DNA of 64,000 bases from Gammaproteobacteria bacterium (lineage in GTDB: Bacteria; Pseudomonadota; Gammaproteobacteria; Eutrophobiales; Eutrophobiaceae): contig JAPPLI010000149.1 in assembly GCA_028819495.1 (NCBI GenBank), positions 153 to 64,152 of the forward strand, in the 5' to 3' direction. The notes below the pieces were generated by a model. That model made no database searches, had not been told where the DNA came from, and saw only the letters and a program-made list of their open reading frames with translations. Made by a program: the position numbers and the translations under genes. Shown here one piece after another: positions 40,373 to 55,996 of this stretch (within the stretch, counting starts at the first letter, position 1; the number at the start of each line of letters is the position of its first letter).

Positions 40373-41560
40373 TTATTCCCAGAACAGTATTTTGCGAACC
40401 GGTTCTTTGCTGAGATTGTCCAGACTCACGATGTCCCGGGGCATCTCGTCGTAATTAATCCAGAACGTGTTCATATACCAGTCCATCCGAAAACCGCTCT
40501 TCGGCTCATAAAAGTACTCGCCCGCCCAGATCATCTGCCAGTCTTCAAGCAAATCGTTGGCATTCTGTAACCGGGGATCGGTATTTGCAATCGCCCTGCG
40601 GTTTACCCGTGTCCGGATTAACTCGCCATTGGAGTCAAACACCTCCTCATACCAGCTACTGCCTGTCTTGATACCGATAATGCGGCGCTGTTTGGCGTAC
40701 CAGTACGATTTGGAATGCGGCGTCATCTCAAGGATGTAGGAAGGTTCACAGACCCCGTCCAGACCCACGTTGACTTCTTCACCCTTGGTTTCCGTCGTGA
40801 AGCCCATGGTGCCTTCAGGCTGGCCTGCGTAGAGCGTATGGCCGACTACCGCGTAATCGACATCGGGAAAGGGTTTGACCTGGGGGAAGTCTTCCCAGCG
40901 TACGATAGTGCCGGGAATGATGTCCTGGCGCGCCGCCTGGGGCAACCGGCGCACGCGCCGCGCGGCCGGGAGGTAGAGGAATTCATCGTTGAATGCCTCT
41001 CCGTGGTAGATGGTTGTGGACATGCCGAGCCCGCGGAAGTCGTTGGGCGCCACAAAGGTAAACATATATTGAGCACGCACCTTCTCCGCCATACTCTTCG
41101 GCAGTCCGTCCGGGTTCAACCGGTATGCGATCATCCATTCAAACAGCCGCTTGTCACGTATGGTGCCGTTCGGGGATATGAGGTCAATGGACCATTCCGT
41201 GATGTAATTATCCCCGAACTCGTTGAAGTAAAGCGCCGTGTAGGAGCGGTCATGGATTTCGCTGCCGTCCTGCTTGACGCGCTCTTCCACTGATATCTCC
41301 CACGGATAGGGAAGTCCCGGTTGTGTCCAGCGGTCATATATGTCAGGCCCGATCTCCTTGTAGGCAGAGTTATGCCAGGGCTGTGGTTTCCAATTCACCG
41401 TCTCGTCACCCCATTTGCAGACGTATGTGCCGGGTTCAGCGCCCGGGCTTATGGAATACGACTTATCCAGTATCTTTTCCTCAGCTGATGCACCCGGCAA
41501 AAAAAACGATAACAGCAAAAAGATTGAGCCTAAGGGGAATACGCGGTTCATCGATTTCAT
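40373..41560 (-). CDS. DUF1329-like / LolA-like periplasmic or outer-membrane lipoprotein-sorting-type protein
   Basis: It has a signal peptide MKSMNRVFPLGSIFLLLSFFLPGASA after a GGAGGG Shine-Dalgarno sequence. It is about 395 aa and partners with the RND and DUF1302-like genes. The family call is tentative. Confidence 0.55.
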   Translation of the reverse strand: MKSMNRVFPLGSIFLLLSFFLPGASAEEKILDKSYSISPGAEPGTYVCKWGDETVNWKPQPWHNSAYKEIGPDIYDRWTQPGLPYPWEISVEERVKQDGSEIHDRSYTALYFNEFGDNYITEWSIDLISPNGTIRDKRLFEWMIAYRLNPDGLPKSMAEKVRAQYMFTFVAPNDFRGLGMSTTIYHGEAFNDEFLYLPAARRVRRLPQAARQDIIPGTIVRWEDFPQVKPFPDVDYAVVGHTLYAGQPEGTMGFTTETKGEEVNVGLDGVCEPSYILEMTPHSKSYWYAKQRRIIGIKTGSSWYEEVFDSNGELIRTRVNRRAIANTDPRLQNANDLLEDWQMIWAGEYFYEPKSGFRMDWYMNTFWINYDEMPRDIVSLDNLSKEPVRKILFWE

Positions 41561-41694
41561 GAGACACCCTCCAATTTGAACATGGAAAAAACACAACTTT
41601 TACGGCGAAAATCCGACTCTGCATATATCGCTCTAGCCTCGAGACAAACTCGCAGTCGCCTTTCACCGAATATAATCCGTCAATCACAAATCTT

Positions 41695-41708
41695 ATTAAT
41701 CGTTTCTA
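41695..41708. promoter_or_regulatory. candidate LacI-type operator half-palindrome ATTAATCGTTTCTA
   Basis: It contains the CGTTTCTA core shared with the sites at 41720, 41833, 44767, 44845, 45049 and 54689. It lies upstream of the DUF1329-RND-DUF1302 array. Confidence 0.45.
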
Positions 41709-41719
41709 CGTACCATGAA

Positions 41720-41733
41720 GTGTAACGTTTCTA
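41720..41733. promoter_or_regulatory. candidate LacI-type operator GTGTAACGTTTCTA
   Basis: It has the same CGTTTCTA core, 25 nt from the previous site. Confidence 0.45.
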
Positions 41734-41832
41734 TTCAAAACAAAGCAAGCAAGCTTTTTCAGTTAAATTATAGGACAAATGATTTGCAGTTTTCTTAATT
41801 ATTCTTAAATTAAGCGATTATTATACAAAAAA

Positions 41833-41846
41833 AATAATCGTTTCTT
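41833..41846. promoter_or_regulatory. candidate LacI-type operator AATAATCGTTTCTT
   Basis: It has the same core with one mismatch and lies just downstream of the lacI-family gene stop. Confidence 0.35.
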
Positions 41847-41888
41847 ATTACTCCGACCACTCACCTGTCTTGACTTGTTGATTATGTT

Positions 41889-42911
41889 TTATTTCGGTTT
41901 TGAGGTAGATTCACGAACAACCAGTTCAACGGGATGAGGCCTGAGCAAGTCCGGGTTTTCTCTGCCCTGAACCATGCTGATCAATAATTCTGCTGCCCTC
42001 ATACCCATTTCATGGGCTGGCTGTCGAACTGTAGTCAGTCTGGGAGTGAGTAATTGTACTGTGGGTATATCGTCAAAGCCGACAATACTCACGTCACCCG
42101 GCACATCTATTGCGTTTGCCCTGCAATACTCAAGCGCTCCGATCGCCATCAAATCGTTGGCGCACAACACCGCAGTCGGACGCTGTGGTTCCGGCACGTC
42201 CAGAAATACTCTGGCCAGTTCATAACCGGAATTCATTTCATAATCGCCCACCAGGACGCTCATTTCATCGGGGTCAATGCCCCCCAAAGCCAGACCCTCG
42301 CGGTAACCGGAAAGACGCTGCTCTGCAGTCCAATGGGTTGTCGGACCGGCAATACATGCGATTCGTCGGTGTCCAAGTTTTATGACATGGGCTGCCACGT
42401 CTCGGGACCCGCGCCGCCCATCTGCGACAACGGCCGGCAAGTCAAGACCGGGAATACGTTCATCGACGAGGACAACCGGCCCAAGCGACTGGAGTTCAAG
42501 GAGAGACCTGGGGGATTCATGGAACCCGCTTTCGTATATGACGCCATCTACACGCCTGCTACGCAGAAGTCTGGCATTACCGAATTCCGCTTCCTCGGAA
42601 TTTTCCGCGCTGCAAAGCACAACCAGCATGTCATGCATTGCAGCAGCCTGCACCACCCCTCGGGCAAGACGGCTGAAAAACTCATTCATGAGGTCTGGAA
42701 CAACAAGGCCAATGGTCGAAGCCGACTGTCGTTTCAGGCTCCGGGCTGATTCATTCGGGATATAATCCAAAGCCCGGACGGCATTGAGAACCCTCGCTCT
42801 TCGTTCTGCACTGACTTGCCCATTATTATTCAGGACGTAACTGACTGTGCTGACTGATACCCGAGCCTGCTCAGCGACGTCTTTCATCGTGGGACGCTGG
42901 TTTTGTTTCAT
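41889..42911 (-). CDS. LacI-family transcriptional regulator
   Basis: It has the N-terminal helix-turn-helix MKDVAEQARVSVSTVSYVLNN and a periplasmic-binding-fold effector domain. The start ATG at 42909-42911 overlaps the upstream stop (ATGA). Confidence 0.9.
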   Translation of the reverse strand: MKQNQRPTMKDVAEQARVSVSTVSYVLNNNGQVSAERRARVLNAVRALDYIPNESARSLKRQSASTIGLVVPDLMNEFFSRLARGVVQAAAMHDMLVVLCSAENSEEAEFGNARLLRSRRVDGVIYESGFHESPRSLLELQSLGPVVLVDERIPGLDLPAVVADGRRGSRDVAAHVIKLGHRRIACIAGPTTHWTAEQRLSGYREGLALGGIDPDEMSVLVGDYEMNSGYELARVFLDVPEPQRPTAVLCANDLMAIGALEYCRANAIDVPGDVSIVGFDDIPTVQLLTPRLTTVRQPAHEMGMRAAELLISMVQGRENPDLLRPHPVELVVRESTSKPK

Positions 42912-43687
42912 ATGGAGACCTGGCTTCCAGCTGCCCAGGACACGATGGATGACCAGAGTTCGGCATAGCAAGGCCAGTTTACAAACTCAGGTGGAGCCCA
43001 GTGCGGAGCGACGTCGGAAGCGAATGCCACACTGCGACCACGTCCCACTTCCCCGACCACAAGCAGAGGATCGTCGCCAGATGCCGCAATAACCGTAGTC
43101 CCGGGTTTGGCTTTCAGTTTATTGTAGCCAAGCAGTATCGGCCAGTCGGCAGGTGTGCCTCCAAGCGCCGGGTGACCGGGATTGGGAAATGTAGCCACGA
43201 GGCCCTCAGGGACCTCAACCCTGTCATCGCGGTCCAGCATTATGACGGGCAGGACCGAGGCCAGCGGGCTGGCCTGATAACGCGCCCGCCCGTCGATGCC
43301 GGAGAAAGACATGTAGCCCCCGGCCATAAGTAGGCCGCCCCCTCCTTCGACATAGTCTGCCAGCAGTACCAGGCGATTTGTCGTGCGCTCGGAGCGCTGG
43401 AATGTTTCATCGCACAGCAGGAAGGAGTTGGACCCGATATCGCTCAGAATCACAACATTGAAGGTGTCGAGTTCTTCCCTGGTCACGGGAAAACGGCTGG
43501 AAACTTCATGTGCCCGGATATACGTAACATTGAAGCCGGCATTTTCCAGGGCAGCCAGGAAAACCCCGGCGCCTTCCTCGTATTCAGTCGTATGAAACTG
43601 GTCGAACCCTTTCAGGTGCACCGTGTGCTTAATCCAGGATTCACCTACTACCAGTACGCTGAGCGGAGAACTCGTTTCTGAATTCAT
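42908..43687 (-). CDS. class-I glutamine-amidotransferase-like fold protein (putative, DUF1355/GATase1_like-type)
   Basis: 259 aa. The pattern VLVVGESW...VVILSDIGSNSF...GGGLLMAGGYMSF is reminiscent of the GATase1-like family. The call is tentative. Confidence 0.45.
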   Translation of the reverse strand: MNSETSSPLSVLVVGESWIKHTVHLKGFDQFHTTEYEEGAGVFLAALENAGFNVTYIRAHEVSSRFPVTREELDTFNVVILSDIGSNSFLLCDETFQRSERTTNRLVLLADYVEGGGGLLMAGGYMSFSGIDGRARYQASPLASVLPVIMLDRDDRVEVPEGLVATFPNPGHPALGGTPADWPILLGYNKLKAKPGTTVIAASGDDPLLVVGEVGRGRSVAFASDVAPHWAPPEFVNWPCYAELWSSIVSWAAGSQVSI

Positions 43688-43754
43688 ATCGACTATCCCT
43701 CCATCTGGTCGCCTGAAGCAGCCGTTTTACCGGCATCAAGCGGGTTTAACCATG

Positions 43755-44276
43755 TCAAAGCAACCGGTTGGTCACAAATTCAGGCAAGACCCGGGCTTCC
43801 GGCACCTGTGGGAGCGCAACTTCTCGCATGTCCCAACCGACCATTTTTTCCGCTATTAATTCGTAAACCTGTCTGCCTGAAGCGACGCGATATTTAAAAT
43901 AACTCTCAGCATAAGGATGGCCGGTGTAAAAATACTTTTCAAATACCAGTTCGTCGACCAGGTCCACTAACCCGGGATCAGACACCTGTTTCATGGTGCC
44001 GTGAATCCGCACCCCATGAACCGTAGCATACTCATCACCGGAATCGACAAGCGCCGTCAGGGGTCTGCCTGCCTGAACATTGTCGGCATGGCGCCCGGCA
44101 GCATCTACCGGCAGGAGAATCCGCTTCTCATGCACAACGTAGTATAACGGAGACATATAAATTGATTCGTCCTCATTTGTAGTTGCTATCCGGATGGTTT
44201 TCTGGCGCGAGAGATAGGCCCAGCGTTTATTGCCGCGCAGGGGCAGGAAGGTACTGGGAGTGATTTCTTGACTCAT
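43755..44276 (-). CDS. pyridoxamine-5'-phosphate-oxidase-family (FMN-binding split-barrel) protein
   Basis: I moved the start to MSQEITPS (ATG 44274-44276). The sequence IRIATTNEDESIYMSPLYYVV is typical of the PNPOx-like fold. Confidence 0.6.
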   Translation of the reverse strand: MSQEITPSTFLPLRGNKRWAYLSRQKTIRIATTNEDESIYMSPLYYVVHEKRILLPVDAAGRHADNVQAGRPLTALVDSGDEYATVHGVRIHGTMKQVSDPGLVDLVDELVFEKYFYTGHPYAESYFKYRVASGRQVYELIAEKMVGWDMREVALPQVPEARVLPEFVTNRLL

Positions 44277-44277
44277 G

Positions 44278-44742
44278 TTATTTTCCTCCGTTACGCAGGG
44301 ATTTGAGTTCCTCGCTGAACTCGGGAACTTCCACCAAGCCATACCGGGGCGACGGACCGCTGGTCCAGAAAAACATGGTTTTTACACCGGTAGCTTCAAG
44401 GGTGTATTTATATCCTCCGGGAAGGTAGATATGCTCGCCGACCCCCGCTTCAAGATAGACGACACGGCCTTCGGCGTCTTCAACCTTTAGACGGATTTTT
44501 CCCTCCAGGCAGTAGTGGGTTTCATCAAAATTTGCCTGGTCCCAGTGGTAATCATCATGGTCAGGTTCCTGGTAACAATATCCGTGACGAAAGTGCCGCG
44601 CATCGTCACGTTCCTGGGAGAGGAAGATATTGGTCCCGATCCCTTTTGCGAAAGGCAACCTGGGCATCGCATGTATTTCTTCTGCGTTGACGACGCGGGG
44701 GTATCTCATCGAGCCGTCATCATAAGTGCTGTAGTTGGTCAT
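44278..44742 (-). CDS. cupin-domain protein
   Basis: 154 aa. It has cupin-like beta-strand blocks (HYCLEGKIRLKV...GEHIYLPGGYKY) and a GGAGGAG Shine-Dalgarno sequence upstream. Confidence 0.6.
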   Translation of the reverse strand: MTNYSTYDDGSMRYPRVVNAEEIHAMPRLPFAKGIGTNIFLSQERDDARHFRHGYCYQEPDHDDYHWDQANFDETHYCLEGKIRLKVEDAEGRVVYLEAGVGEHIYLPGGYKYTLEATGVKTMFFWTSGPSPRYGLVEVPEFSEELKSLRNGGK

Positions 44743-44766
44743 TTTGTCTCCTCCGATTACAGAATA

Positions 44767-44780
44767 CAGGATCGTTTCTC
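44767..44780. promoter_or_regulatory. candidate LacI-type operator CAGGATCGTTTCTC
   Basis: It has the shared core and lies 25 nt upstream of the cupin gene start. Confidence 0.35.
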
Positions 44781-44844
44781 ATCATACACCGCTCAAGTGG
44801 AACGTTGTGTCGCCTCACGGCCGGGTTTTTTTGCGGAGCACGAC

Positions 44845-44858
44845 TAGATTCGTTTATA
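44845..44858. promoter_or_regulatory. candidate LacI-type operator TAGATTCGTTTATA
   Basis: It matches TAGAAnCGnTTCTA at 12 of 14 positions. Confidence 0.4.
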
Positions 44859-45048
44859 CACTAGACTAGTGAGCAGCAGTCGTCAAGGTAATTATTCCGA
44901 CATATTTAGTGCCTGTTATCCGGCATAAGCAGATATAATCGTTTTTTTTTAACAAGTTACACGGCGTCAATAATTTAAATATCGGATAATTTATTTCGCC
45001 CGCCGGTTTTTTTCATATTGGGAAAAACTCCAGGTTGATATGTAATAT

Positions 45049-45062
45049 TAGAAACGTTACTA
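45049..45062. promoter_or_regulatory. candidate LacI-type operator TAGAAACGTTACTA
   Basis: It matches TAGAAnCGnTTCTA at 13 of 14 positions and lies about 100 nt upstream of nadV. Confidence 0.5.
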
Positions 45063-45161
45063 TTTCCGAATAAATGATTTTGCAGTTACCATAAGCCAAT
45101 AACCTGTTATATGAGAACTTAATCACGTCATCCATAACTCATCCATTACAAGGAGACAGAA

Positions 45162-46610
45162 ATGGGCTTTCATCACAATATCATTATCGACGTTGACAAC
45201 TACAAACACTGCCATTACTCGCTCTATCCGCCCGGTACGGAATATGTTTCCAGTTATATAGAATCCCGGGGAGGTATTCTTCCATCGACAATGTTTGTCG
45301 GGTTGCAGGCGTATATCCGCGAATACCTCATGCGTCCCATTACCCTGGAAGATATCGACGAGGCTGAATTCATCGAACGCGAACAGGGCATGCACTTCAA
45401 CCGTGATAACTGGTTGGGGATACTGAACGACCACGGTGGCTTCCTGCCGGTTGAGATTGAAGCTGTACCGGAGGGAACGGTGTTGCCGCCAAAAAACGTA
45501 TTGGTGCAGTTGATCAATACAGATCCCAAATATTACTGGGCAACCAGCTTTTTTGAAACTTCGCTGTTGCGCGCCGTCTGGTATCCGACAACGATCGGAA
45601 GCATAAGCTGGCTCAGTAAACAGGTAATCAAGGATTCGCTGGAGCATACCTCCGACAACCCGGGTGTCATTCGCCATATGCTGCACGATTACGGCGCACG
45701 GGGAGTAAGTTCGCAACAATCCGCCGCCTTGGGCGGCCTGTCCCATCTCGTCAACTTCAGCCAGAGCGACACCTTGCCCGGTATCATTGCCGCGAAACGT
45801 TACTACAACGCCGGCCACGTATCCAATTCAGGTCCGAATTCCGAACATGCGGGCTTTTGCGCATGGGGGAGGGAAAACGAAGCCGCAGCGCTCCGTAATA
45901 TGCTGGATATGTATGCGGATAACGGCGTAGCCCTGCTTCTTACCGATACATACGATCATGAGAACTGTGTAAAAAATATTATCGGAAAGGAATTGAAAGA
46001 AAAGATTCAGAACTTCCCCGGCCTGGTCGGCGTACGGCCTGATTCCGGGGACGTGGTTCAGGTTACTTCCGACACGACTGAATGGCTGATGGATGCGTTT
46101 GGCTATGAAGTCAATTCCAAAGGTTATAAAGTGTTGCCTCCCTACCTCCGGGTTGTACAGGGTGACGGCGTGAATTTTCCTGTTTTGCCGAAGATATTCA
46201 TTGAACTGGAACGGCGCGGTTTTTCAGCGGAAAATGCGATTTACGGCATGGGTGGCGGCCTGCTGCAACATTTTCATCGGGATACCATGAATTTCGGGCA
46301 GAAGGCCAGTGCTGTGTGTGTAAACGGAGAATGGCGGGACATCTACAAATCTCCAACCGGCTCCGATTTTAAGGTGTCTAAAAAAGGCCGCTTGGCGCTG
46401 AAATACGAAAACGGCACCTACACAACAGTCCCGCGTGATTCCATTCCACCTGAAGAAAACGTACTGATTCCGGTCTTCAGGAATGGAAAACTGTTAAAGA
46501 AATGGGATTTCACTGAACTCATAGAACGCAGTGAACGGGAATACCCCGAGTCCTATTACCTTGACATTGTGAGGCCGCTGCGGGAAGCGCGGAACAGTAC
46601 CGCACGCTGA
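45162..46610 (+). CDS. nadV: nicotinamide phosphoribosyltransferase
   Basis: 482 aa. It has the NAMPT-like N-terminus (NIIIDVDNYKHCHYSLYPPGTEYVSSYIESRGG) and the GVRPDSGD and VVQGDG blocks. An AGGAGA Shine-Dalgarno sequence is present. Confidence 0.9.
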   Translation: MGFHHNIIIDVDNYKHCHYSLYPPGTEYVSSYIESRGGILPSTMFVGLQAYIREYLMRPITLEDIDEAEFIEREQGMHFNRDNWLGILNDHGGFLPVEIEAVPEGTVLPPKNVLVQLINTDPKYYWATSFFETSLLRAVWYPTTIGSISWLSKQVIKDSLEHTSDNPGVIRHMLHDYGARGVSSQQSAALGGLSHLVNFSQSDTLPGIIAAKRYYNAGHVSNSGPNSEHAGFCAWGRENEAAALRNMLDMYADNGVALLLTDTYDHENCVKNIIGKELKEKIQNFPGLVGVRPDSGDVVQVTSDTTEWLMDAFGYEVNSKGYKVLPPYLRVVQGDGVNFPVLPKIFIELERRGFSAENAIYGMGGGLLQHFHRDTMNFGQKASAVCVNGEWRDIYKSPTGSDFKVSKKGRLALKYENGTYTTVPRDSIPPEENVLIPVFRNGKLLKKWDFTELIERSEREYPESYYLDIVRPLREARNSTAR

Positions 46611-46629
46611 AAACGGCGACTCTCTTACA

Positions 46630-47301
46630 ATGTCCTGCCTTCACATTTTTGACATGGATGGAACCCTGCTCAAAGGTTCCGCCTGTCTCGAGATTTCACG
46701 CACGGTCGGCGTACTGGCTGAAACGCTTGACATCGAAGATGTCTGGAGCAAGGGCGAGATCAGCGACAATGAATTCTGGGTCAGATGTCTTCCGTTATGG
46801 AAAGACCTTACAGACGAGCAGCTCGACCAGTCTTTCCTGACGAGTCCATGGCTTCAGGGAGTGCAGTCCGTATTCGCTGATATCAATTCCCGGAATGAAA
46901 AGAGTGTCGTTATTTCTCAATCTCCCCTGTTTTTTGTGGAACGGCTACATGCGTGGGGAGCGGATTTCGCATACGGCGCCCTGGTAACTCCGGGAAATTC
47001 TGCGGGCGCCGAGCGGCTTTTGACCAGCCGCGATAAATTGAAGATAGCGGACAAGCTGTTGTCAGAACTCGGTTTAACCTATGACAATTGCGTCGCGTAT
47101 GGCGACTCGCTGTCTGATCTTGACCTGTTCAAGTCACTTCCCAAAACAGTCGCCGTGAACGCGAGAAAACCAATCCGCGAGCTTGCACGCGTATGCTACG
47201 AGGGACCGAGCATGTGGGATGGGTATTCCGCCGGGCGTAAATTAATAGAAGACCACGCTGGTGGATTGACAGCCCCCCGGGAAACTGACCGAAATAATTG
47301 A
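46630..47301 (+). CDS. HAD-superfamily hydrolase (phosphoserine-phosphatase-like subfamily IB)
   Basis: It has motif I FDMDGTLL and a C-terminal GDSLSDLD motif. Confidence 0.8.
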   Translation: MSCLHIFDMDGTLLKGSACLEISRTVGVLAETLDIEDVWSKGEISDNEFWVRCLPLWKDLTDEQLDQSFLTSPWLQGVQSVFADINSRNEKSVVISQSPLFFVERLHAWGADFAYGALVTPGNSAGAERLLTSRDKLKIADKLLSELGLTYDNCVAYGDSLSDLDLFKSLPKTVAVNARKPIRELARVCYEGPSMWDGYSAGRKLIEDHAGGLTAPRETDRNN

Positions 47302-47308
47302 TTTCGCC

Positions 47309-47752
47309 ATGAAGAACACCGCCCACCTCAGCCAGGAGTCCGAGCACGACCAAGAACCCGCGGGCACTACTGACAGGTACCGGAAAACCCTGGAACTTTT
47401 CAGCGCTGCCTGGAGCAGAGGAGATATAGACAGCCTTCTCAACCTGATGGGCGATGAGCCTGTTTACAAGGGTTCTACCGGAGCCGGACCCGGAACGTTC
47501 TACAGCGGGCGTGAGGAGGTAAGGGCTGCTTTCGAGAAGATGGCTGGGGGAAATGCCGGCGCTTGTGAACCGTTGACGCCGGCAACATCCCCGGAAATGT
47601 ATTTCTTTTCCAATCGTGCGCTGGTTTACTGGAACCTGGTGCTGCCGGGCGCCGACGGTTCGCCGCAACGGGTGGACGGTGTGGACATCATAGAATTTAC
47701 GGGCGATGGCCGTATCTCGGTTAAAGACGCCTACAGGAAGTCATTTTCCTGA
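47309..47752 (+). CDS. SnoaL/NTF2-like fold protein
   Basis: 147 aa. The pattern FSAAWSRGDIDSLLNLMGDEPVY...VDIIEFTGDGRI is typical of SnoaL-like proteins. Confidence 0.55.
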   Translation: MKNTAHLSQESEHDQEPAGTTDRYRKTLELFSAAWSRGDIDSLLNLMGDEPVYKGSTGAGPGTFYSGREEVRAAFEKMAGGNAGACEPLTPATSPEMYFFSNRALVYWNLVLPGADGSPQRVDGVDIIEFTGDGRISVKDAYRKSFS

Positions 47753-47780
47753 CGTGGCGCGGTAAATTCAGGATTATTCT

Positions 47781-49508
47781 TCAGGCCGCGTGTTCCTGCA
47801 TCCAGCGGCGCTTTGCTCCATTTACCTCGCCTGTGTGGAACCGGGCAGTGCGGTTTGTCGGTTCCAGGGCTTCGTCATAGAAAAACCCAGGTAATTCGTC
47901 ATCCACCTCGGTAAAACCGGCCGCCTTGTTAAACTCGTCTTCATATTTCAGGGTCCGGTAACCCAGTTCATGGAAAAAGGAAGAATCCAGTTCTGTGCCG
48001 ATGGCAGCATTAATATGCTCCACCATCATCTCAAGTTGGGCATTGGTTACAGTTCCCCCAAACAGGCACAGGCCAAGAGAATCCGCCGCTGCGCATTCAA
48101 CCTGCAATTCCATACTGACGCCCATCAGTTCATCGAGATCTTTTCCCGCACATGCATAAGATGGTGAGTTTCCGGTAGTGTGGTCTGCCCCTTGCGCCGT
48201 GACCATCATGGACAGCCCGGTAACTTCCACCACACGAGGGTCATAAGCGCTGATACCCTGCTTCTTGATTACCGGAGTACGTTGCACCTTGTAATGTTCG
48301 CCTACCCTTGCGGTGCCCTGGGCCCAGAGCCTGCCCTGTTCGCTGCCTTTGCCGATTTCATTCAGGACTGACGTAAGGAACTTTACGTCGCCAAATTCCG
48401 CCAACCCCGCATCCAGCAAAACACCCATCATCGCGCCTGTTTCAATGGTGTCTATCCCGAGCGCGTTGGCAAGGTAGTTCAGGCGGGCAAGGTCATCCGG
48501 ATCCTTGATGCCGCAATTTGTCCCCATTAAGCCCAGTGTTTCATATTCCACCGGCGAGACAATCTCGTTTCCTTCAGCATCCGCATAAACGTTGCTGCAT
48601 TCGATCATGCAGCCGGGCATACAGGCGTGGGCCGTCTGACCTCCCCGTGACATGTTCTGTTCCCGGATGAAAGTACCGCCCATTTTCAGGGTTTCCTTGT
48701 CGGTATCCACCAGGCGCCCGGAAGTAAAATTATTGACCGGTAAACCGCCTATATGGTTTGTCAGGTCCGTTACCATCGCGGTGCCGTAGTCCTTGAAAGC
48801 CTTGACAAGGGAATCCTCATTCAACATGTTGCCGTATTCCCTGATCCCCCGGATCACCTTTTTTCGATCCTGGAACATCGGTATCTTGTGACGTTCGCAG
48901 ACGATAGCCTTGACCTTTTTTGATCCCATCACTGCGCCAACTCCGCCGCGCGCCGCCAGGCGTGTAGGGCGCCGGTCCGTGTCACTCATCCCTATACCGG
49001 CGATCAGTCCGCCGTACTCACCCACAGGCCCGCATAGAGCGAGACTTACCTTGTTTCCGTACTTTTCATGCAGCAATCCGGCACAGGCAAAATTATCCTT
49101 GCCCAGGCAGGCTTCCGCGTCCTCGAATTGCACCGACCCGTCTTTACGCAGGACAATAACCGTCCAGTCGTCTGCAGCCTTGTTGAGCGTGAATCCGGCT
49201 ATCTCCAGTTGTCCCAGCGCCAGACCGAATGAACCGCCGGCATTGGATTCCTTGATGCCCCCGGTAAGCGGACTTTTACAACCGACGCTGATCCTGTTCG
49301 CGTTCGACCAGTTACTGCCGGCGAACGGGCCCACGGAAAATATCAGGGGATTATCGGGAGATAACGGATCCACCGGTCCAACGTTCATATCTACCAGGGT
49401 TTTCGCTATGAAATACCGCCCTGCGCGGGCTATTTCTTCCCCGGCGAGGGTTTCTTCACGCACAGCTTTTTCGGCCAGGTCGACATGCAAATATCTACGC
49501 ATTATCAA
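47781..49508 (-). CDS. aldehyde:ferredoxin oxidoreductase family (tungsto/molybdopterin) enzyme
   Basis: 575 aa. It has the AOR_N-like N-terminus (YLHVDLAEK...), a Cys cluster HACMPGCMIEC and an AOR-like C-terminal domain. Confidence 0.85.
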   Translation of the reverse strand: MIMRRYLHVDLAEKAVREETLAGEEIARAGRYFIAKTLVDMNVGPVDPLSPDNPLIFSVGPFAGSNWSNANRISVGCKSPLTGGIKESNAGGSFGLALGQLEIAGFTLNKAADDWTVIVLRKDGSVQFEDAEACLGKDNFACAGLLHEKYGNKVSLALCGPVGEYGGLIAGIGMSDTDRRPTRLAARGGVGAVMGSKKVKAIVCERHKIPMFQDRKKVIRGIREYGNMLNEDSLVKAFKDYGTAMVTDLTNHIGGLPVNNFTSGRLVDTDKETLKMGGTFIREQNMSRGGQTAHACMPGCMIECSNVYADAEGNEIVSPVEYETLGLMGTNCGIKDPDDLARLNYLANALGIDTIETGAMMGVLLDAGLAEFGDVKFLTSVLNEIGKGSEQGRLWAQGTARVGEHYKVQRTPVIKKQGISAYDPRVVEVTGLSMMVTAQGADHTTGNSPSYACAGKDLDELMGVSMELQVECAAADSLGLCLFGGTVTNAQLEMMVEHINAAIGTELDSSFFHELGYRTLKYEDEFNKAAGFTEVDDELPGFFYDEALEPTNRTARFHTGEVNGAKRRWMQEHAA

Positions 49509-49670
49509 GTCCCCTTTCAGAAATGACTAGAATCGATTATATGTCGTCCCATCCATGCTGTAAAGTTGTTGTTGAATTCCAGGGCAGCGGTTCCCGCTAA
49601 CTTGACCAGAAGGGTGACCCCGGCATTCAGAGGGAACTTGAAAAAACACCTGGAACAGCCTTGCCCGGCG

Positions 49671-51962
49671 TTAAACCGGTGAGTTGATACGGCGGCATTG
49701 AGTGTCTTCCAGAAGCGTTTCATATGCCATTTTTTGATTTTCAGGCAAGTATCCTGCCCTGTGTTGCAATACCTCCAGCAGAGGACAGGCTTGCTCCGGT
49801 CTCGTCGATCCTGAACGGATGCGCACCCTGTTCAGCATTCCTTCCCACCAGATATCGGATGTTGGTAATACCTTATCAGTAATCACGTTCCATGCCTTGT
49901 CGGCAGTAAACGGGTCGCCGGTCAGTTCAGCGGTACGCGCCAGCGAACGCCAGGCATCACCTGAACTCGGATGTTCCCGCGTGAAAGCCAGCGCCTTTTC
50001 GTGGGCTGCTTCCCGGTTATCGATGGAAAGTAAATTCTCTATGATGAGACGGTAGAACCTGCGGTCGATATCAGGCAGCGTTACTGCAGCCGGGTGTGCG
50101 ATTTGCGCCAGTTCCAGTCGTTGCAGTATGTCTTCCCGTCCGGCAATCCAGGGGTATACAAGTTCCAGGGGAAGATCCGGGCTGATACCTTCATTAAGCA
50201 TGCGCATCATTTCCATTAATCCGGGCCAGTCATCCAATCGGTCATATAACTGGAGTCGCGACCATGACAAGGCATGATTGAGGTGTGCATCACGATCGCC
50301 CTTGATGATAATGGAACCCAGCGACCTGATCATTTCATCCGGATATGCAGCGACCAGCTCCTCTTGTTCTTCCGCTTCATAATTTTTCAGGTTGCCAAGG
50401 AAATCCAGTGAATTAATCAACTCATCAGGTCCTGGTTCGACAAGCGCGCGCATCTGCAATAGCAGGGCAATATTGCGAGGATTTGTCCTGTCCGGTTCGG
50501 GTAATTTCCTGAATGCTTCCACGCCTTGACGGGCCAGTTCAGCAGCCGCTTCCGTTTGGGCAGATGTAATCCTGGCGCTGAATTCCCGTGCAATGAAATT
50601 AAATGAAGTGCGTTCCACCGCGCCATTGAATTCCGTAGCTGAGCGGATCTGGCGGAGTGTCTCCAAGGCGCTATCGGCATTCTGTGAGGTTTGTGCAACG
50701 AGTAATCTGGCCTGGTCAGCCTCAGGGTCATCAGGGTTTTTATCCACGAACCGTTTCGCCGCCGAGTGCAGGGACTTGTGGCTCGTTTTATGGCTGTCTC
50801 TCAGGGCGAGCGCCAAGTGAACCGTATACAGCAGCTTTGCCGCTGCCTTGTCAATTTCAGGTGTCAGTCGTTTCCGGCGCCCAAGCTTCTCAAGAACACC
50901 CAGCGCTGTCTGGTAGCTCCCGGCCTTATAGGCTGCGAATGCCCGACGATAGCGAAAAACATCAAGATTAATTCCCTGCTGCGGTATGAACTCCTTGAAA
51001 AATGCTTCATATTTTTGTACGGCTTTCTGATAATCGCTATGAAGCAAACGAAACTCGGCGGCAGCAAGAGTACTCCAGGGGTCAACGTCGATTGCGGCAA
51101 TTTCCTGGGCATAAGCCATTATATTTTCCAGTAATGACTGGTCCATCCGGCCGGCTTTTATGAGTGTCAGGAGGTATCGCGCTATGGCTTGGTCATGCTT
51201 GCTTTCCACGCGGCTCCGTTCCAGTGAGATGAATAATTCCCTGCGCAGCAAACGAGCCTGTTGAGCGTCAATTTCCATACTGATGCCGGCAGCAGTAATA
51301 TCTCCCATGCGCAGTTCCTGCAGCAGCAGTTCCATTGATACAGCCTCTTTGACCGGGGAAGCCGGCAGCGCCGACACTGCTTCATCCAGTTTTTTGAATA
51401 CCTGGCGGGCGCGGGCGGTATGACCCAGTTCCAGGTCAACATAACCGATACCCAGCCATCCTCCATAAAAGAGTTGTGGTCTGAACAACTGCAGTGAGGC
51501 CGCCTGAAACCCTTTGCGTGCGCGCGCCAGAATCCGGTCCCGGTCTGACAGGGATTTTCTGGCTATTTCAAGATCAATCCATGCTGACCAGTAGATAAAG
51601 GAAGCTTCTGCAAAACTCAGGTCGTTCCATGCCTGTGAGCGGTAGAGACGCTCAAGAGCAGCCTCGCTTTGTCCTGTCTTATGTTCTGTGGTCGTCAAAA
51701 TCTGCCCGGACCTTGTCTCCATGGCCCCAAGAAGTTCGCGCAGTGTTTCAAGTTCTTCCAGCTTCAGTGTCTTGCGCGCACCATCAACAATGGGGCCCAG
51801 GTCTCCGGCTATGCGGGCGACATGAGGGGCTTCTGAAGTTGTCCCGAGCTGTGCATGCAAGGCGCTCACGAGTTCAATTGCATTCCTGTTATCAGTGGCG
51901 CTTACCGGCGTGACAGCCATCAACAGAACGAGAATCCTGACTATCATCCTAGCCGCTTTCAT
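49671..51962 (-). CDS. large secreted helical-repeat (TPR-like) protein
   Basis: 763 aa with a signal peptide MKAARMIVRILVLLMAVTPVSA. The body is Ala/Leu/Arg/Glu-rich with helical-repeat character. It lies 29 nt downstream of the VWA gene. Confidence 0.5.
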   Translation of the reverse strand: MKAARMIVRILVLLMAVTPVSATDNRNAIELVSALHAQLGTTSEAPHVARIAGDLGPIVDGARKTLKLEELETLRELLGAMETRSGQILTTTEHKTGQSEAALERLYRSQAWNDLSFAEASFIYWSAWIDLEIARKSLSDRDRILARARKGFQAASLQLFRPQLFYGGWLGIGYVDLELGHTARARQVFKKLDEAVSALPASPVKEAVSMELLLQELRMGDITAAGISMEIDAQQARLLRRELFISLERSRVESKHDQAIARYLLTLIKAGRMDQSLLENIMAYAQEIAAIDVDPWSTLAAAEFRLLHSDYQKAVQKYEAFFKEFIPQQGINLDVFRYRRAFAAYKAGSYQTALGVLEKLGRRKRLTPEIDKAAAKLLYTVHLALALRDSHKTSHKSLHSAAKRFVDKNPDDPEADQARLLVAQTSQNADSALETLRQIRSATEFNGAVERTSFNFIAREFSARITSAQTEAAAELARQGVEAFRKLPEPDRTNPRNIALLLQMRALVEPGPDELINSLDFLGNLKNYEAEEQEELVAAYPDEMIRSLGSIIIKGDRDAHLNHALSWSRLQLYDRLDDWPGLMEMMRMLNEGISPDLPLELVYPWIAGREDILQRLELAQIAHPAAVTLPDIDRRFYRLIIENLLSIDNREAAHEKALAFTREHPSSGDAWRSLARTAELTGDPFTADKAWNVITDKVLPTSDIWWEGMLNRVRIRSGSTRPEQACPLLEVLQHRAGYLPENQKMAYETLLEDTQCRRINSPV

Positions 51963-51991
51963 GGTTTTATCCGCCTCGGTGCGCTACAGCG

Positions 51992-53104
51992 CTATAATTC
52001 ATCCAGTAACGCCTGCATCTCTGCAGCGAACTGATCGCCCATGATCAGCTTCACCAGGCGTTTGGTCAGTTTTATCTCGCCATCCAGCGTTGCAGCATCA
52101 CCCTGACCGGCTTCACTGATCATAAGAAACTCCGGCATAGGCGCATTGCGGTACAGGTGGCGAGGAAGTTCACGACCCAGCTTGGCTTCCAACAGTTGGG
52201 GATTGGCCTGATCGCTGACATCAAGAGTGGATACGGTTCCGCCGGAATGCCTGAACTGTTCAACCATTTGAACCACGTCTCCAATCCGTTTTGGTCCGGC
52301 AGGGGCATCGCCTACCAGTATGATGACCCTGCGCGCGCCGATCCGCCAACCGGACAGGTCGATAGCATCAGCCAACCCGCTGTCAATTGCTTCGAACCTG
52401 TCACCACCCCCTTCTGCCTCCAGGACGGAGAGAAATTGCTGAAGTTTCACTGTGCTATACGTCAGCGCTTGTACGCGAGTTATAAATTCCGGATCATCAC
52501 GGTCCCGGTAAGCAACTATCCCGAACCTGGCTATGGGCACCAGCGACCGCACAAAACGGGTAATATCTTCAATGCGGTTTTTTACCTCGTTGATTACCCA
52601 TCCCATCGAACCCGTGGCATCGATACAGAAAACAACATCCAGACCCGCTTCACGCAAGCCGGCTATGTAAGGGGCGAAACGTGCTGTTCCGTCTCCAAGG
52701 CCATTACCTGTGTCGGTTTTGAAGCCGCCATAACCACTGCCTTCACTGCTCGAAACAAGAGCCAGCCCCCGGGGGATTTCAACACCTTGAAAACCCTGAC
52801 CCTGCGCCCTGAAGGCAAGAATGGCATCAGGCGGAGGCGGAATTGCAGCCTTGGGCGCAATCAGGATATCCGGCGGATCGAACTCCAGTTCCTGTTCAAA
52901 TTCAAGTTGCTCTTCGGGGATCACAGGTTGTTCAGTGTTTACTTCGGGGACCTGTTCAATAAGGATTTCTTCATCTTTTTCAGGGGCCTGTAACACGGGC
53001 TGCTCGATCCCCCGGCCTGCTTGCCATATCACCAGGGCGTGTATTATGGAGGAGCACAGTAATAAGGAGAGCCAAGCGAGCGAATATTTGACTGAATGCA
53101 ACAT
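51992..53104 (-). CDS. membrane-anchored VWA-domain protein with TonB-like N-terminal module
   Basis: 370 aa. The N-terminal TM helix LAWLSLLLCSSIIHALVIW carries an S18-x3-H22 motif. An acidic, proline-rich linker follows (aa about 38-95). The C-terminal VWA domain has a MIDAS-like VVFCIDATGSM motif and ILVGDAP. Confidence 0.7.
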   Translation of the reverse strand: MLHSVKYSLAWLSLLLCSSIIHALVIWQAGRGIEQPVLQAPEKDEEILIEQVPEVNTEQPVIPEEQLEFEQELEFDPPDILIAPKAAIPPPPDAILAFRAQGQGFQGVEIPRGLALVSSSEGSGYGGFKTDTGNGLGDGTARFAPYIAGLREAGLDVVFCIDATGSMGWVINEVKNRIEDITRFVRSLVPIARFGIVAYRDRDDPEFITRVQALTYSTVKLQQFLSVLEAEGGGDRFEAIDSGLADAIDLSGWRIGARRVIILVGDAPAGPKRIGDVVQMVEQFRHSGGTVSTLDVSDQANPQLLEAKLGRELPRHLYRNAPMPEFLMISEAGQGDAATLDGEIKLTKRLVKLIMGDQFAAEMQALLDEL

Positions 53105-53109
53105 TAGTT

Positions 53110-53544
53110 TTAAGGCGCGCCGACCCTGCTTTGCGTAACCAGGGAGAAGCGAAAGATGTCGGCCTGCGCCGCAGCATTCATTATGTCTGAAATAATAAGC
53201 GCGTCTACGTCGGCATCTGCATGAATCCTGAGCTTCTCATAAGCGGGCGTCCCGGCAAGTTCCGTTGTCAACTCGCTTATTTCGATATTGCGGGCTTCAA
53301 ACCATATTCTCCCGTTACGCTCTACGTTTACAACAGGCGTGTTCGCTTCTGTTTTGGTGTTACGGGTGGATACAGGGAGGTTAATATTAAAATCGGAGTC
53401 CAGGTTTCCTGCCACCATAAAATAGAGCAACAGCAGGAAAATAACGTTTATCATGGGAATCACATTTTCTTCCCGCTTCCTGTTACCTTTCACAAAGCGC
53501 CGCTGCGGCCGTCGAAAGTAGGAGCTTTGCCTTATTTGACGCAC
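53110..53544 (-). CDS. exbD: ExbD/TolR-family protein
   Basis: 144 aa. It has a basic N-terminus followed by a TM segment, IPMINVIFLLLLYFMV, which is ExbD-like. Confidence 0.8.
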   Translation of the reverse strand: MRQIRQSSYFRRPQRRFVKGNRKREENVIPMINVIFLLLLYFMVAGNLDSDFNINLPVSTRNTKTEANTPVVNVERNGRIWFEARNIEISELTTELAGTPAYEKLRIHADADVDALIISDIMNAAAQADIFRFSLVTQSRVGAP

Positions 53545-53562
53545 CTGAAGCCTGTTTCCGAT

Positions 53563-53988
53563 TCAATCAAATTGTTGTGCCGCGGTCATTGAAATGCTGG
53601 AAATACCGTGCCGGTTGAACAGGTCCATTATGTCAACGGCACGTTGCAAAACCACCCCCGGGTCAACGCCCAGCACCACACGCGTAGCGTCAGGATAAAT
53701 AATACCAGCCGCATAATTTTGTAAAGCTTCGATATCGGTAGCTGTTCCGTTCAACCAGATAGTCCCGTTGTCGTGTATTTCAATTGAAACTGTATCCGTA
53801 CCTGAAACGGCGCCGCTGGAGCCGGCAGCTTTGGCAAATTCGATAGTATGCGGCCGGAAAAAGTTTGTCTGCAGCATAAAAAAAACCAGCAGGATAAACA
53901 CGCAGTCTATGAGCGGCGTCAGCGACAAACGCCTGTTGCGCCGCTCGTACTTCAATCCAGGGAGGGTTCCAGGACCCGTGCGCATCAT
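53563..53988 (-). CDS. exbD: ExbD/TolR-family protein
   Basis: 141 aa. It has SLTPLIDCVFILLVFFM, typical of ExbD. Its start overlaps the exbB stop (ATGA). Confidence 0.8.
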   Translation of the reverse strand: MMRTGPGTLPGLKYERRNRRLSLTPLIDCVFILLVFFMLQTNFFRPHTIEFAKAAGSSGAVSGTDTVSIEIHDNGTIWLNGTATDIEALQNYAAGIIYPDATRVVLGVDPGVVLQRAVDIMDLFNRHGISSISMTAAQQFD

Positions 53989-54620
53989 GAGGAATAAACC
54001 GGCAGTATCAGCGCCCGGCTGAACACGTCATTCACCTGGTTGGTAAGCACTTCCAGTTTTGACTCAAGGAAGGTGTGCAATACGGCAAAACAGATTGCAA
54101 TGGACAGCCCTACTGCCGTTGTCAGTAACGCTTCCCAGATGCCGCTGGCAAGTGCAGCAGATTCCGCCGCTGAACCGGCGCTGCCTGCCAGGCCCCGGAA
54201 CGCATCAATCATGCCAAGAACAGTACCCAGCAGTCCGAGCACAGGCGCGAGGGTATAAATCAATTCGAGTATTCGGAGGTTCCTTGCATATTCACGTAAA
54301 AATTCCGATGAGCGCCGCAATATTTCATCGTAAAGATAATCGCTGTCCACCCTGGAGCGCTGTTCCAGTACAAAACGCAGGTCATGAGCTATCGCCAAAG
54401 ATGAACCGTCGATGATTTCAAGCGCGCTTTTCTGTTCTCCGCTGTGCCACTGTTCCACAGCCAGGTAAAGCCGCTTGAGTACCGGCTCACTTACTTTTGA
54501 GAACTGCTGAAATTTCCGCAGGGTCAACGCCAGCCCAAATACCGAGGCAACAAGCAAAATTGCTACTATCGGCCCTCCAAGCGCCAACAATGTTTGTATA
54601 TCTTCAAATATATCCAACAT
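53985..54620 (-). CDS. exbB: MotA/TolQ/ExbB proton-channel family protein
   Basis: 211 aa with three TM segments. It has the LGLLGTVLGMIDAF motif. Confidence 0.85.
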   Translation of the reverse strand: MLDIFEDIQTLLALGGPIVAILLVASVFGLALTLRKFQQFSKVSEPVLKRLYLAVEQWHSGEQKSALEIIDGSSLAIAHDLRFVLEQRSRVDSDYLYDEILRRSSEFLREYARNLRILELIYTLAPVLGLLGTVLGMIDAFRGLAGSAGSAAESAALASGIWEALLTTAVGLSIAICFAVLHTFLESKLEVLTNQVNDVFSRALILPVYSS

Positions 54621-54688
54621 AAAAACAGGTTTGTTTACGGTTTATGATTTGATGCCGAGCCTCTTTGTCAACACATTTGATTTATTAC

Positions 54689-54702
54689 TAGAAACGATTC
54701 TA
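54689..54702. promoter_or_regulatory. near-perfect 14-bp palindrome TAGAAACGATTCTA (candidate LacI-type operator)
   Basis: The 5-bp outer arms TAGAA/TTCTA are perfect. It lies about 70 nt upstream of the exbB start. Confidence 0.5.
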
Positions 54703-54846
54703 TACAAATATGCAGACCCTGTAAAACTCTATTCTCGTGTCAGCCGGACCTGGACAGGCGCCCGGGAATCTCCCTACCCATATGGCTGGAGAGTTAAGGA
54801 TGCTCCGGTCAAGTCCATCCAGGACTTTCAGAGTACGCAGTCAGCT

Positions 54847-55902
54847 TCAGTTGCTGCCGCGCAGTGGATTTCCAACCCGCTCGATGAACAGGTTGATGAA
54901 GCGGGGCCAGTCAAGCTCATACTGGACGTCCATCAACCCGGCTCCTTCGGCGCCGGGCCATAACTTGCGACCGCCAACCGATACCCCGTAGTTGATTCCA
55001 TGCTGGATATCAACATCGACGTATAACCGCTCCCTGGTAACGAGAGCAGGGTCAATGACGCTGGCTACCGCAATCTGGTCATACATGAAATAAATCCTGT
55101 CCGGCTCGTTTGCAAAGTGCTTTCCCAGCGTATCTTTCAGAAGCCGGGTCAGGGGGGTATCCGTTGCCACTATTTTTTCATACCAGTCTCTGGTTAATGA
55201 ACTTTTCCGGGATACATTGAGCGGAGACAAATCAATCGGGATGCCTGATCGAAGCGTGGTATACGCGGCTTCCGGGTCTACCCAGAAATTAAATTCTGCG
55301 TTCGGCGTAATATTGCCGCTGCCATCCGGAAGCATTGCTATCGCTCCCCCCATGATAACCATTCGCTTCACATTCTTCGCAAAATCGGCATTAGTCCGAA
55401 TAGCCTGGGCAACGTTGGTCAACGGGCCGATGGCAACAAGCGTGATATCCCCCGGGTTTTCCAGAACCGTTTTGACCATAAAAGACACTGCACTTTCAGC
55501 TTCCGCTTTTTTATCGGCATAACCGCCTGGAGGGACAGGTGGATGTTCGTTTGAATACCACCGGCCGTATTCACGCACTGCAAAATCACTCTTTTCATGA
55601 ACCAGCGGCATATCCGCACCCCTGTATACCGGAATCTCGGCCTGCTGCGCTATTTCAAGCATGCGTAAAACGTCCGATGTAGCGCGTTCCACGCTGTCGT
55701 TGCCGGCTACGGTGGTAATGCCCAGGATCTCAATCTCCGGAGACTGCAACGCCAGCATCAACGCCATACTGTCATCGTGAGGGGGCATCACGAAATCGGT
55801 ATCGAAAATAATTCTGGTGCGTTCCTCACTTTGCGCAATGCCGGGAACCACGGAAGAGAGCAGAAAAACAGCTATAAATAAAGTCAGTAACTTTCTTGAC
55901 AT
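54847..55902 (-). CDS. secreted inosine-uridine-preferring nucleoside hydrolase family protein (atypical Asp motif)
   Basis: It has a signal peptide MSRKLLTLFIAVFLLSSVVPGIAQ. The N-terminal IIFDTDFVMPPHDDSMAL resembles the DxDxxxDD motif but carries an insertion. The length is typical of the IUNH family. Confidence 0.75.
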   Translation of the reverse strand: MSRKLLTLFIAVFLLSSVVPGIAQSEERTRIIFDTDFVMPPHDDSMALMLALQSPEIEILGITTVAGNDSVERATSDVLRMLEIAQQAEIPVYRGADMPLVHEKSDFAVREYGRWYSNEHPPVPPGGYADKKAEAESAVSFMVKTVLENPGDITLVAIGPLTNVAQAIRTNADFAKNVKRMVIMGGAIAMLPDGSGNITPNAEFNFWVDPEAAYTTLRSGIPIDLSPLNVSRKSSLTRDWYEKIVATDTPLTRLLKDTLGKHFANEPDRIYFMYDQIAVASVIDPALVTRERLYVDVDIQHGINYGVSVGGRKLWPGAEGAGLMDVQYELDWPRFINLFIERVGNPLRGSN

Positions 55903-55996
55903 GACCCCTCCTGTATGAACGGCAATCGAGAAGACCTTATGTAATAATATGTGCCTTGTGGACTATCTTGCAAATATTATCCGGGCAGCGGGCATC

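Follow-up and report, generated by a model that had tools for sequence, protein, structure and literature searches.

The known bacterial regulators of genes for the salvage of nicotinamide adenine dinucleotide (NAD) are NrtR, NiaR and NadR. In a 2014 survey of the LacI family, 96% of the groups with an assigned pathway were found to control sugar use, and the non-sugar groups comprised five for nucleoside use, PurR (purine/pyrimidine synthesis) and NtdR (a biosynthetic pathway) (PMC4052901). The same survey recorded a central CG in 1173 of 1303 motifs, placed more than 75% of the sites between −140 and −30 of the start codon, and found more than three quarters of the local regulators to be autoregulated (PMC4052901). 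The Escherichia coli operator rbsO has the sequence TCAGCGAAACGTTTCGCTGA (bioRxiv 10.1101/2025.04.02.646877). Here, we analysed a stretch of 64,000 nucleotides (hereafter the window; positions 153 to 64,152 of contig JAPPLI010000149.1, assembly GCA_028819495.1) from a gammaproteobacterium of the family Eutrophobiaceae, in whose intergenic regions a 14-bp CG-centred palindrome recurs, TAGAAACGTTTCTA in its ideal form. On sequence grounds, this palindrome very probably serves as operator for the LacI-family protein whose gene lies at 41889-42911 (minus strand), and this protein would act as a local repressor of five adjacent units. The sites, their conservation and clustering, their position at predicted promoters and their co-occurrence with the regulator are observed directly and are set out below.

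An earlier note on this DNA had listed seven such 14-mers by eye, and all seven were recovered exactly as quoted and at the quoted coordinates. The distances that it gave to the start codons also proved correct, being 69 nt for exbB (start at 54620), 100 nt for nadV (ATG at 45162) and 25 nt for the cupin-like gene (start at 44742). Then, a symmetric weight matrix (16.7 bits), built from the sites of relatives only, was run on this genome. The best match in the genome proved to be the exbB operator at 54689-54702 (TAGAAACGATTCTA, 23.4 bits). All six genomes in which the spacer has its full length share this site without change, whereas it has degenerated in G004 and is missing from G005, the genome with exbB fused behind the nucleoside hydrolase gene; the contig of G016 stops short of exbB. 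The nadV operator at 45049-45062 (TAGAAACGTTACTA, 21.7 bits) is identical in 9/9 genomes. An operator that the earlier note did not list lies at 49528-49541 (TAGAATCGATTATA, 21.7 bits), 20 nt upstream of a gene of the AOR family (aldehyde:ferredoxin oxidoreductase-like); it is the tied second-best match genome-wide, is identical in three of the five genomes aligned there, and is degenerate in G015 and G022.

The regulator's own operon is preceded by a promoter-proximal operator at 44845-44858 (TAGATTCGTTTATA, 18.8 bits; identity 0.88 against a background of 0.41), with the block CGTCAAG invariant in 9/9 genomes, and by a leader-proximal site at 44767-44780 (CAGGATCGTTTCTC, 10.8 bits) just 5′ of the ATG at 44742. 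The latter is degenerate here, most relatives having AATAATCGTTTCTT (16.7 bits) at this place, and its core ATCGTTTCT is invariant in 9/9 genomes. The divergent region contains an extra site at 44934-44947 (TATAATCGTTTTTT, 15.8 bits), likewise absent from the earlier list, where TATAA(T/A/C)CGTTTA is kept in 8/9 genomes (identity 0.76). Upstream of the array headed by DUF1329-RND-DUF1302 genes, two operators stand in tandem, 25 bp apart from centre to centre. Operator 1 at 41695-41708 (ATTAATCGTTTCTA, 16.5 bits) is kept in 9/9 genomes, the relatives having TCGAATCGTTTCTA or TAGAATCGTTTCTA (identity 0.78 against a background of 0.39), and operator 2 at 41720-41733 (GTGTAACGTTTCTA, 14.3 bits) corresponds to TAGTAACGTTTCTA in the relatives (identity 0.84 against 0.39). 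Both were found in 9/9 genomes at a spacing of 24-25 bp, and the relatives' copies are more palindromic. A distal site at 41833-41846 (AATAATCGTTTCTT, 16.7 bits) is located 43 nt 3′ of the regulator stop and 237 nt 5′ of the DUF1329 start; here ATAATCGTTTCT is kept in 8/9 genomes between divergent flanks (identity 0.80). All these variants are accommodated by the half-site TA(G/T)AA(A/T)C. The operator is thus an even palindrome with an invariant central CG that lies near promoters and also precedes the regulator's own operon, and its distances to the start codons range from about −20 to −137, with one further site at −237. In its central CG, its site distances and its predicted autoregulation, the system fits all three yardsticks taken from the LacI-family survey.

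Phylogenetic footprinting, which the earlier note had proposed as a check, showed the sites at the same positions upstream of the orthologous genes in eight congeners. Orthologues of the regulator (78-85% identity) were present in 8 of the 22 congeneric genomes searched, and the whole neighbourhood was syntenic in all eight. Nine of the 23 genus genomes searched contain both the regulator and nadV, and neither was found in the other 14. Within the sites, the mean identity of the relatives to this genome was 0.72-1.00, against a background of 0.39-0.41 per column; the most conserved background windows of 14 nt (0.64-0.71) stayed below each site in its own spacer, the AOR-family spacer excepted, where the neighbouring windows are equally conserved because the promoter is conserved too. 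Furthermore, in the five complete congeners that possess the regulator, 14 of the 18 sites with at most one mismatch were located in the orthologous locus of about 22 kb, which makes up about 0.5% of each genome. The five congeners lacking the regulator had 0-3 such sites per genome; in none of these were the two positions beside the central CG both A or T, and one of them also lacked the CG; the sole close pair among them consisted of identical sites 1.7 kb apart in G003.

Two further features of these spacers were seen in the alignments. A block AAGCGAT(T/A)A, conserved in 7/9 genomes, occupies positions 41809-41822; it is separated by 11-17 nt from the 41833 site and has the opposite orientation (AAGCGATTA ... 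TAATCGTTT). This block is CG-centred yet scores below 10 bits because a G adjoins the centre, and could represent either an additional weak site or one half of a long-spaced inverted repeat. Moreover, short tandem AT-rich repeats (TAATTCC, GAATTAG and AATTACG units) are expanded in the exbB-hydrolase spacer of L026 (G022), and also in L083 and L084; such expansion in several intergenic spacers of some congeners displaces otherwise conserved sites.

The distribution of the motif was then evaluated in the window and in the genome. With at most three mismatches, TAGAAACGTTTCTA occurs six times in the window against 1.09 copies expected, a number reached by 0 of 100 shuffles; the 49528 operator is one of these six. 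The 7-mer CGTTTCT occurs 18 times against 7.07 expected, with six copies in the intergenic stretches singled out by the earlier note and the other 12 within coding regions; the earlier note had rightly stated that this core is not unique, while its list of coding copies was short, giving 8 of the 12. In the whole 4.97-Mb assembly only two sites carry at most one mismatch, 45049 and 54689, and both are in the window. The three top positions of the matrix in the genome (54689, 45049 and 49528) all lie inside a 13-kb stretch, 7 of the 17 best matches genome-wide fall in the window, and scores of at least 16 bits are reached only 16 times in the whole genome. When the search was restricted to intergenic DNA as defined by a home-made gene caller (4402 genes, 89% coding), eight of the matches of at least 14 bits were found within 13.5 kb at this locus, and at 16 bits or more there were 8 matches genome-wide against 4.2 ± 4.6 for 100 permuted palindromes of matched composition. 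It is this extreme local concentration, together with conservation, that constitutes the signal, and not the genome-wide count. The regulon is accordingly predicted to be local and confined to an accessory island, not global.

To relate the sites to promoters, we used a consensus scan that was blind to the operator motif. The best promoter in the scanned region was that of the AOR-family gene (49564-49536, minus strand; TTTACA-17-TATAAT, 11/12), and the minus-strand arm of the 49528 operator is its −10 box TATAAT. The second best was the exbB promoter (54725-54697, minus strand; TTTACA-17-TAGAAT), whose −10 box TAGAAT is the minus-strand arm of the exbB operator. At nadV, the 45049 operator overlaps the spacer and the −10 box of the promoter at 45035-45063 (plus strand; TTGATA-17-TACTAT), so that the three best operators coincide with the two best promoters of the scan plus the nadV promoter. 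For the regulator's operon, a conserved TTGACG-17-TAGTGT running from 44886 down to 44858 on the minus strand was read by eye from the alignment, and it abuts the 44845 operator. An operator placed over the −10 hexamer is the classical layout for steric repression. The positions inside or over the −10 element at nadV, the AOR-family gene and exbB imply that a bound repressor would block RNA polymerase. No Rfam family was matched, up to E = 1, in 41000-56500, which argues that no NAD+ or other riboswitch accounts for the conserved blocks.

The coincidence of three of the best sites with −10 hexamers also raises the question whether the motif simply reflects shared promoter architecture, that is, the −10 boxes TAGAAT, TATAAT and TACTAT in AT-rich surroundings, and not the site of a regulator. 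Two look-alike sites elsewhere in the genome, C73:2577 and C179:7476 (TATTAACGATTATA and its reverse complement), resemble promoter elements as well, and the C73 site is retained whether or not a genome has the regulator, although the regulator-less G011 is only 83% complete. We nevertheless consider this explanation very improbable. Conservation extends over both arms and the central CG, reaching 14/14 positions at nadV and exbB, which goes beyond a hexamer, and the tandem DUF1329 sites, the 44767 leader site and the 41833 site match no predicted promoter. Moreover, the palindrome is missing from the congeners that lack the regulator, and it recurs around regulator orthologues in genomes of 61-70% GC.

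The two look-alikes are identical over an 18-mer, ATATTATTAACGATTATA, at G000 C73:2577-2590 and C179:7476-7489 (minus strand in C179), and score 18.9 bits each. Both copies are upstream of unrelated clusters, each with a UbiD-family decarboxylase gene: the C73 cluster contains TauD-like and UbiD-like genes, and in the C179 cluster, genes of the amidohydrolase, nitrilase-like and CoxG-like kinds diverge from a CobW-like gene, a UbiD-like gene being close by. C73:2577 was rejected as a target of the regulon for its presence irrespective of the regulator, and is probably a promoter element or the site of another factor. Three of the four congeners that have the gene conserve C179:7476, one of them (G004) with TG at its centre, and the site coincides with a likely promoter. 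The remaining candidates, namely two sites 80 bp apart in C127 and one at C75:643, fall within coding regions of contigs that are short or look mobile, and were taken as chance matches.

The proposed repressor, a protein of 340 amino acids, is encoded at the end of the cupin-like/PNPOx-like/GATase1-like operon, by a gene whose start overlaps the stop of the preceding one (ATGA). Its helix-turn-helix (HTH) domain matches PF00356 with 68.3 bits against a cut-off of 27, over residues 28-73 of the long open reading frame, which are residues 8-53 counted from the ATG at 42911. The earlier note had described it as the only LacI-family gene in the window, which is right, and it is also the only PF00356 match in the assembly, which is 95.9% complete. 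The C-terminal effector domain is of the type-I periplasmic-binding-protein-like kind (Peripla_BP_3, 135.8 bits; Peripla_BP_1, 117.7 bits). Orthologues of 61-85% identity keep the recognition helix VSVSTVSYVLN and the hinge PNESARSLKR almost unchanged, the only difference being an S-to-N change of the hinge in most congeners and in L046, whereas the next paralogue group (Rahnella and Pantoea; 38-40% identity) differs in the recognition helix and hinge. The hinge ESARSLKR aligns with ALARSLK of RbsR, and its Leu is kept in all orthologues. In the PurR and LacI structures, the hinge Leu inserts into the central CpG step. E. coli RbsR is the nearest of the solved structures (9ny7, E 4e-54), followed by CcpA and PurR (about 1e-47 for PurR). 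The best family model in NCBIfam was CytR, with 248.6 bits against a cut-off of 436, and the scores also remained under the cut-offs of the two RbsR models (NF047341, 229.8 against 382; NF007743, 208.3 against 531), PurR (190.9 against 501) and UriR (183.8 against 550). Scores so far below the cut-offs of CytR, RbsR, PurR and UriR place the protein in a separate orthologous group.

The sites might also be real operators of a different regulator, either Fur or, at nadV, a NAD regulator of the NrtR, NiaR or NadR type. In many proteobacteria Fur acts on exbB-exbD operons, such units being classically controlled by iron, NrtR is the usual regulator of nadV, and the arms TATAAT and ATTATA loosely resemble the GATAAT of the Fur-box type. 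However, the invariant central CG with the GAAAC half-site is of the LacI/RbsR type and not of the Fur type, a housekeeping regulator of the Fur kind should have its sites throughout the genome and in every congener whereas this motif is confined to the island and missing from regulator-less congeners, and a single motif covers nadV together with genes outside NAD metabolism. On these grounds, and with no search of the genome for homologues of NrtR, NiaR or NadR, we regard such an assignment as very improbable.

Furthermore, orthologues from more distant lineages were collected by a scan of species-representative genomes. They were found in two gammaproteobacterial metagenome-assembled genomes (MAGs), L041 and L042 (regulator identity 72-73%), in a MAG labelled deltaproteobacterium, L043 (73% identity, 70% GC), and in a MAG labelled Candidatus Leucobacter sulfamidivorax, L046 (61% identity). 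In these four loci the gene order is rearranged and the GC content is 61-70%, and each has 2-7 sites of at least 12 bits. The sites precede nadV, a RihA-like nucleoside hydrolase gene, and operons with a GATase1-like gene or orf154 together with the regulator; in L042, they also precede DUF1329 and a unit ending in the phosphoribosyl pyrophosphate (PRPP) synthetase gene prs. GATase1-like and LacI genes are adjacent in L041 and L042, the full order orf154-PNPOx-GATase1-like-LacI is present in L043, and the motif lies upstream of each. A ribokinase-like gene directly follows the regulator in L042 and L043. A core of the regulon thus appears to be kept, comprising the nucleoside hydrolase, the ribose-to-PRPP genes, nadV-HAD, the cupin/PNPOx/GATase1-like genes and the DUF1329-RND trio, while the AOR-family gene and the ExbBD-VWA unit would be regulon members in this genus only. 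The nucleoside hydrolase, the ribokinase-like gene, prs and nadV in this distant core, which we take as ancestral, indicate a ribosyl or pyridine-nucleoside signal.

In the locus of L046 (L046:9822-9843), a MAG that bears an actinobacterial label, the 61%-identical regulator with its identical recognition helix adjoins a nadV of 75% identity, which suggests either that regulator and nadV moved together by horizontal transfer or that the sequence was wrongly binned. The stretch between them holds the arms TAGAATC and GATTCTA, which do not adjoin but are separated by 8 nt.

Taken together, the assignment made in the earlier note, a CG-centred operator of the LacI/GalR type for the regulator at 41889-42911, gains support from conservation, clustering and promoter overlap, from the co-occurrence of sites and regulator, from the recurrence of the palindrome in distant loci, from the presence of a single LacI-family protein, and from the absence of the sites in regulator-less congeners, all of which are arguments drawn from sequence comparison. 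The regulon that it had outlined (the DUF1329-RND array, the regulator's own operon, nadV and ExbBD-VWA) is supported for these units, and was incomplete in leaving out the AOR-family gene.

Several observations weigh against this reading. Four of the sites (41695, 41720, 41833 and 44767) are half-palindromes only, and the DUF1329 unit showed no sigma-70 promoter in the scan. The genome-wide intergenic enrichment that the earlier note expected was not seen, there being 13 matches of at least 14 bits against 15 ± 10 for the permuted palindromes; the cluster of eight was also reached by 1 of the 100 permuted controls, whose mean was 1.8. The ranking of the sites is not fully independent of the sites being tested, because the training sites of the matrix are orthologous to the top-ranked ones. 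In addition, conservation at three sites could partly be conservation of the −10 boxes themselves, and regulator and targets co-occur in part because a single island was inherited as a whole. We do not take the missing genome-wide enrichment as a refutation, because a local regulator has few sites and the strong intergenic matches are nearly all at this locus.

A further objection concerns the regulatory logic. With the same regulator and the same sites, the protein might behave like PurR and bind DNA only together with an end-product co-repressor, such as a pyridine nucleotide, nucleoside or base, so that salvage and uptake would be shut off at a full pool with no induction by substrate. PurR is among the closest solved relatives, nadV serves salvage and is in this sense biosynthetic, and prs belongs to the regulon of distant loci. 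The regulon in this genus, however, is mostly catabolic or for transport (Mo hydroxylase, Rieske oxygenases, RND, ExbBD), functions that are typically substrate-induced, and RbsR and most local LacI-family regulators are inducer-released (PMC4052901). We thus consider a PurR-like co-repressor rather unlikely, though less so than either the promoter or the other-regulator explanation.

Taking the protein as an inducer-released local repressor, a dimer would bind the nine sites in four intergenic regions and repress five adjacent units, which were annotated with Pfam and NCBIfam. We infer that this protein binds the sites, that an inducer releases the repression, and what class of compound acts as the effector. 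The first unit, with the layout given by our own gene caller, is a same-strand array at 21669-41596 (minus strand, gaps of at most about 108 nt) headed by DUF1329-like (40373-41596, minus strand), RND (MMPL-like) and DUF1302-like genes; these would be controlled by the two tandem operators plus the distal site. The array also contains a CoxG-like gene, a Mo-hydroxylase (FAD, FeS and Mo subunits), two Rieske oxygenase genes, an SDR gene and further genes, and judged by gene spacing it may form one transcript or regulated unit beyond its first three genes. The second unit, 42908-44742 plus the regulator (minus strand; Pfam), is syntenic in the eight congeners and consists of a weak cupin gene, orf154 (44278-44742), a PNPOx-like gene (43755-44342) and a GATase1-like gene (42908-43687), followed by the regulator, so that repression here would amount to autoregulation. 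The third unit (45162-47752, plus strand) comprises nadV (45162-46610), which encodes a NAMPT-type phosphoribosyltransferase (Pfam NAPRTase and NAMPT_N; NCBIfam PRK09198, 505 bits against a cut-off of 405), a HAD-IB phosphatase gene (46630-47301) and a SnoaL-like gene (47309-47752). The fourth is the AOR-family gene (47781-49508, minus strand; Pfam AFOR_N and AFOR_C), and the fifth (49671-54620, minus strand; Pfam) is composed of exbB (53985-54620), two exbD genes (53110-53988), a gene for a VWA-domain protein (51992-53104) and a gene for a protein of 763 amino acids, p763 (49671-51962). The last three units would likewise be repressed, and binding of a small-molecule effector would free all the promoters from the repressor. 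The effector is most likely a ribosyl compound, namely ribose, a ribose phosphate, or a pyridine or other nucleoside.

Beyond exbB, the window encodes an IU-nucleoside hydrolase (54847-55902, minus strand) and an orphan ribose-type binding protein (55949-56968, plus strand), and no operator site was found 5′ of either gene in the spacer between them (55903-55948). Other conserved blocks are present in the divergent region at 55903-55960 and in the orthologous spacers: ATAATAT occurs in 8/8 aligned genomes, and GGTAGACTATGTTGCAAAC is full in five relatives, degenerate in a sixth and absent here. These two blocks may be the site of another factor or part of the coding start. Regarding divergence, NadV is 93-97% identical among the nine genomes, whereas the adjacent regulator is only 78-85% identical, which suggests that the accessory island may be under very uneven constraint.

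The shared operator ties together units that are poorly understood, including the pyridine-ring array of unassigned substrate, the cupin/PNPOx/GATase1-like trio, the AOR-family enzyme with its odd placement and ExbBD-VWA, and connects them with nadV. For genes of this kind in an uncultured lineage represented by MAGs, co-regulation offers one of the few clues to function, and the distant core narrows the substrate question to ribosylated pyridines or nucleosides.

Compared with described systems, the regulator and its operator are most readily set beside RbsR and rbsO. Both operators are even CG-centred palindromes, rbsO has the inner 10 bp GAAACGTTTC in common with the consensus found here, both proteins share the N-terminal pattern TMKDVA...VS.STVS.V.N...ARSLK, and distant orthologues of the present regulator adjoin a ribokinase-like gene. 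The outer operator positions differ, being TA...TA here and GC...GC in rbsO, and the recognition helix is VSVSTVSY here but VSTSTVSH in RbsR (V for T and Y for H), the two substitutions matching the difference in the outer positions. The targets are also different, since the regulon here consists of nadV, the pyridine-ring array, ExbBD-VWA and the AOR-family gene. No transporter operon of the rbsDACBK type adjoins the sites in the window, which contains only the orphan ribose-type binding protein. Its scores, well under both RbsR cut-offs, show that the regulator is not an RbsR orthologue. By score it belongs to the same family branch as CytR, PurR, UriR, AdeR and HpxR (CytR best, then PurR and UriR), which represent the few LacI-family regulons known outside carbohydrate use, and its nucleoside hydrolase targets recall uriH in the case of UriR; it stays under the equivalog cut-off of each of CytR, PurR and UriR.

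The 2014 survey describes no LacI-family regulon for NAD or pyridine metabolism, as 'nicotin' occurs nowhere in its text and the lone 'NAD' is a reference-list entry for an NrtR paper (PMC4052901). Our literature search yielded neither a report that connects nadV with a regulator of the LacI family nor any occurrence of the motif string. With NrtR, NiaR and NadR, the present system would share the role of a local repressor upstream of nadV(-prs), as in L042, where the motif precedes nadV and the prs-containing unit; it differs in the protein, which is of the LacI type with a periplasmic-binding-protein-like domain in place of the Nudix-winged HTH, 3H-HTH and NadR types, and in the type of operator. 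A more far-reaching and rather speculative possibility, which we think is more probably wrong than right, is that this RbsR-like protein represents a fourth type of bacterial regulator of NAD metabolism beside NadR, NiaR and NrtR, acting through one ribosyl-pyridine effector as the master switch of an island for extracellular pyridine nucleosides and nucleotides. In that case, uptake across the envelope would be energised by the ExbBD-VWA unit and the DUF1329-RND-DUF1302 trio, the nucleoside hydrolase would cleave the imported compounds, the ribose would be converted to PRPP, and either nicotinamide would be converted to nicotinamide mononucleotide by NadV or the pyridine ring would be degraded by the Mo-hydroxylase/Rieske array. 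In comparison with all these systems, the repressor mechanism itself is ordinary and of the textbook kind, and what is new is the unusual non-carbohydrate set of targets, which would add such a regulon to the LacI family.

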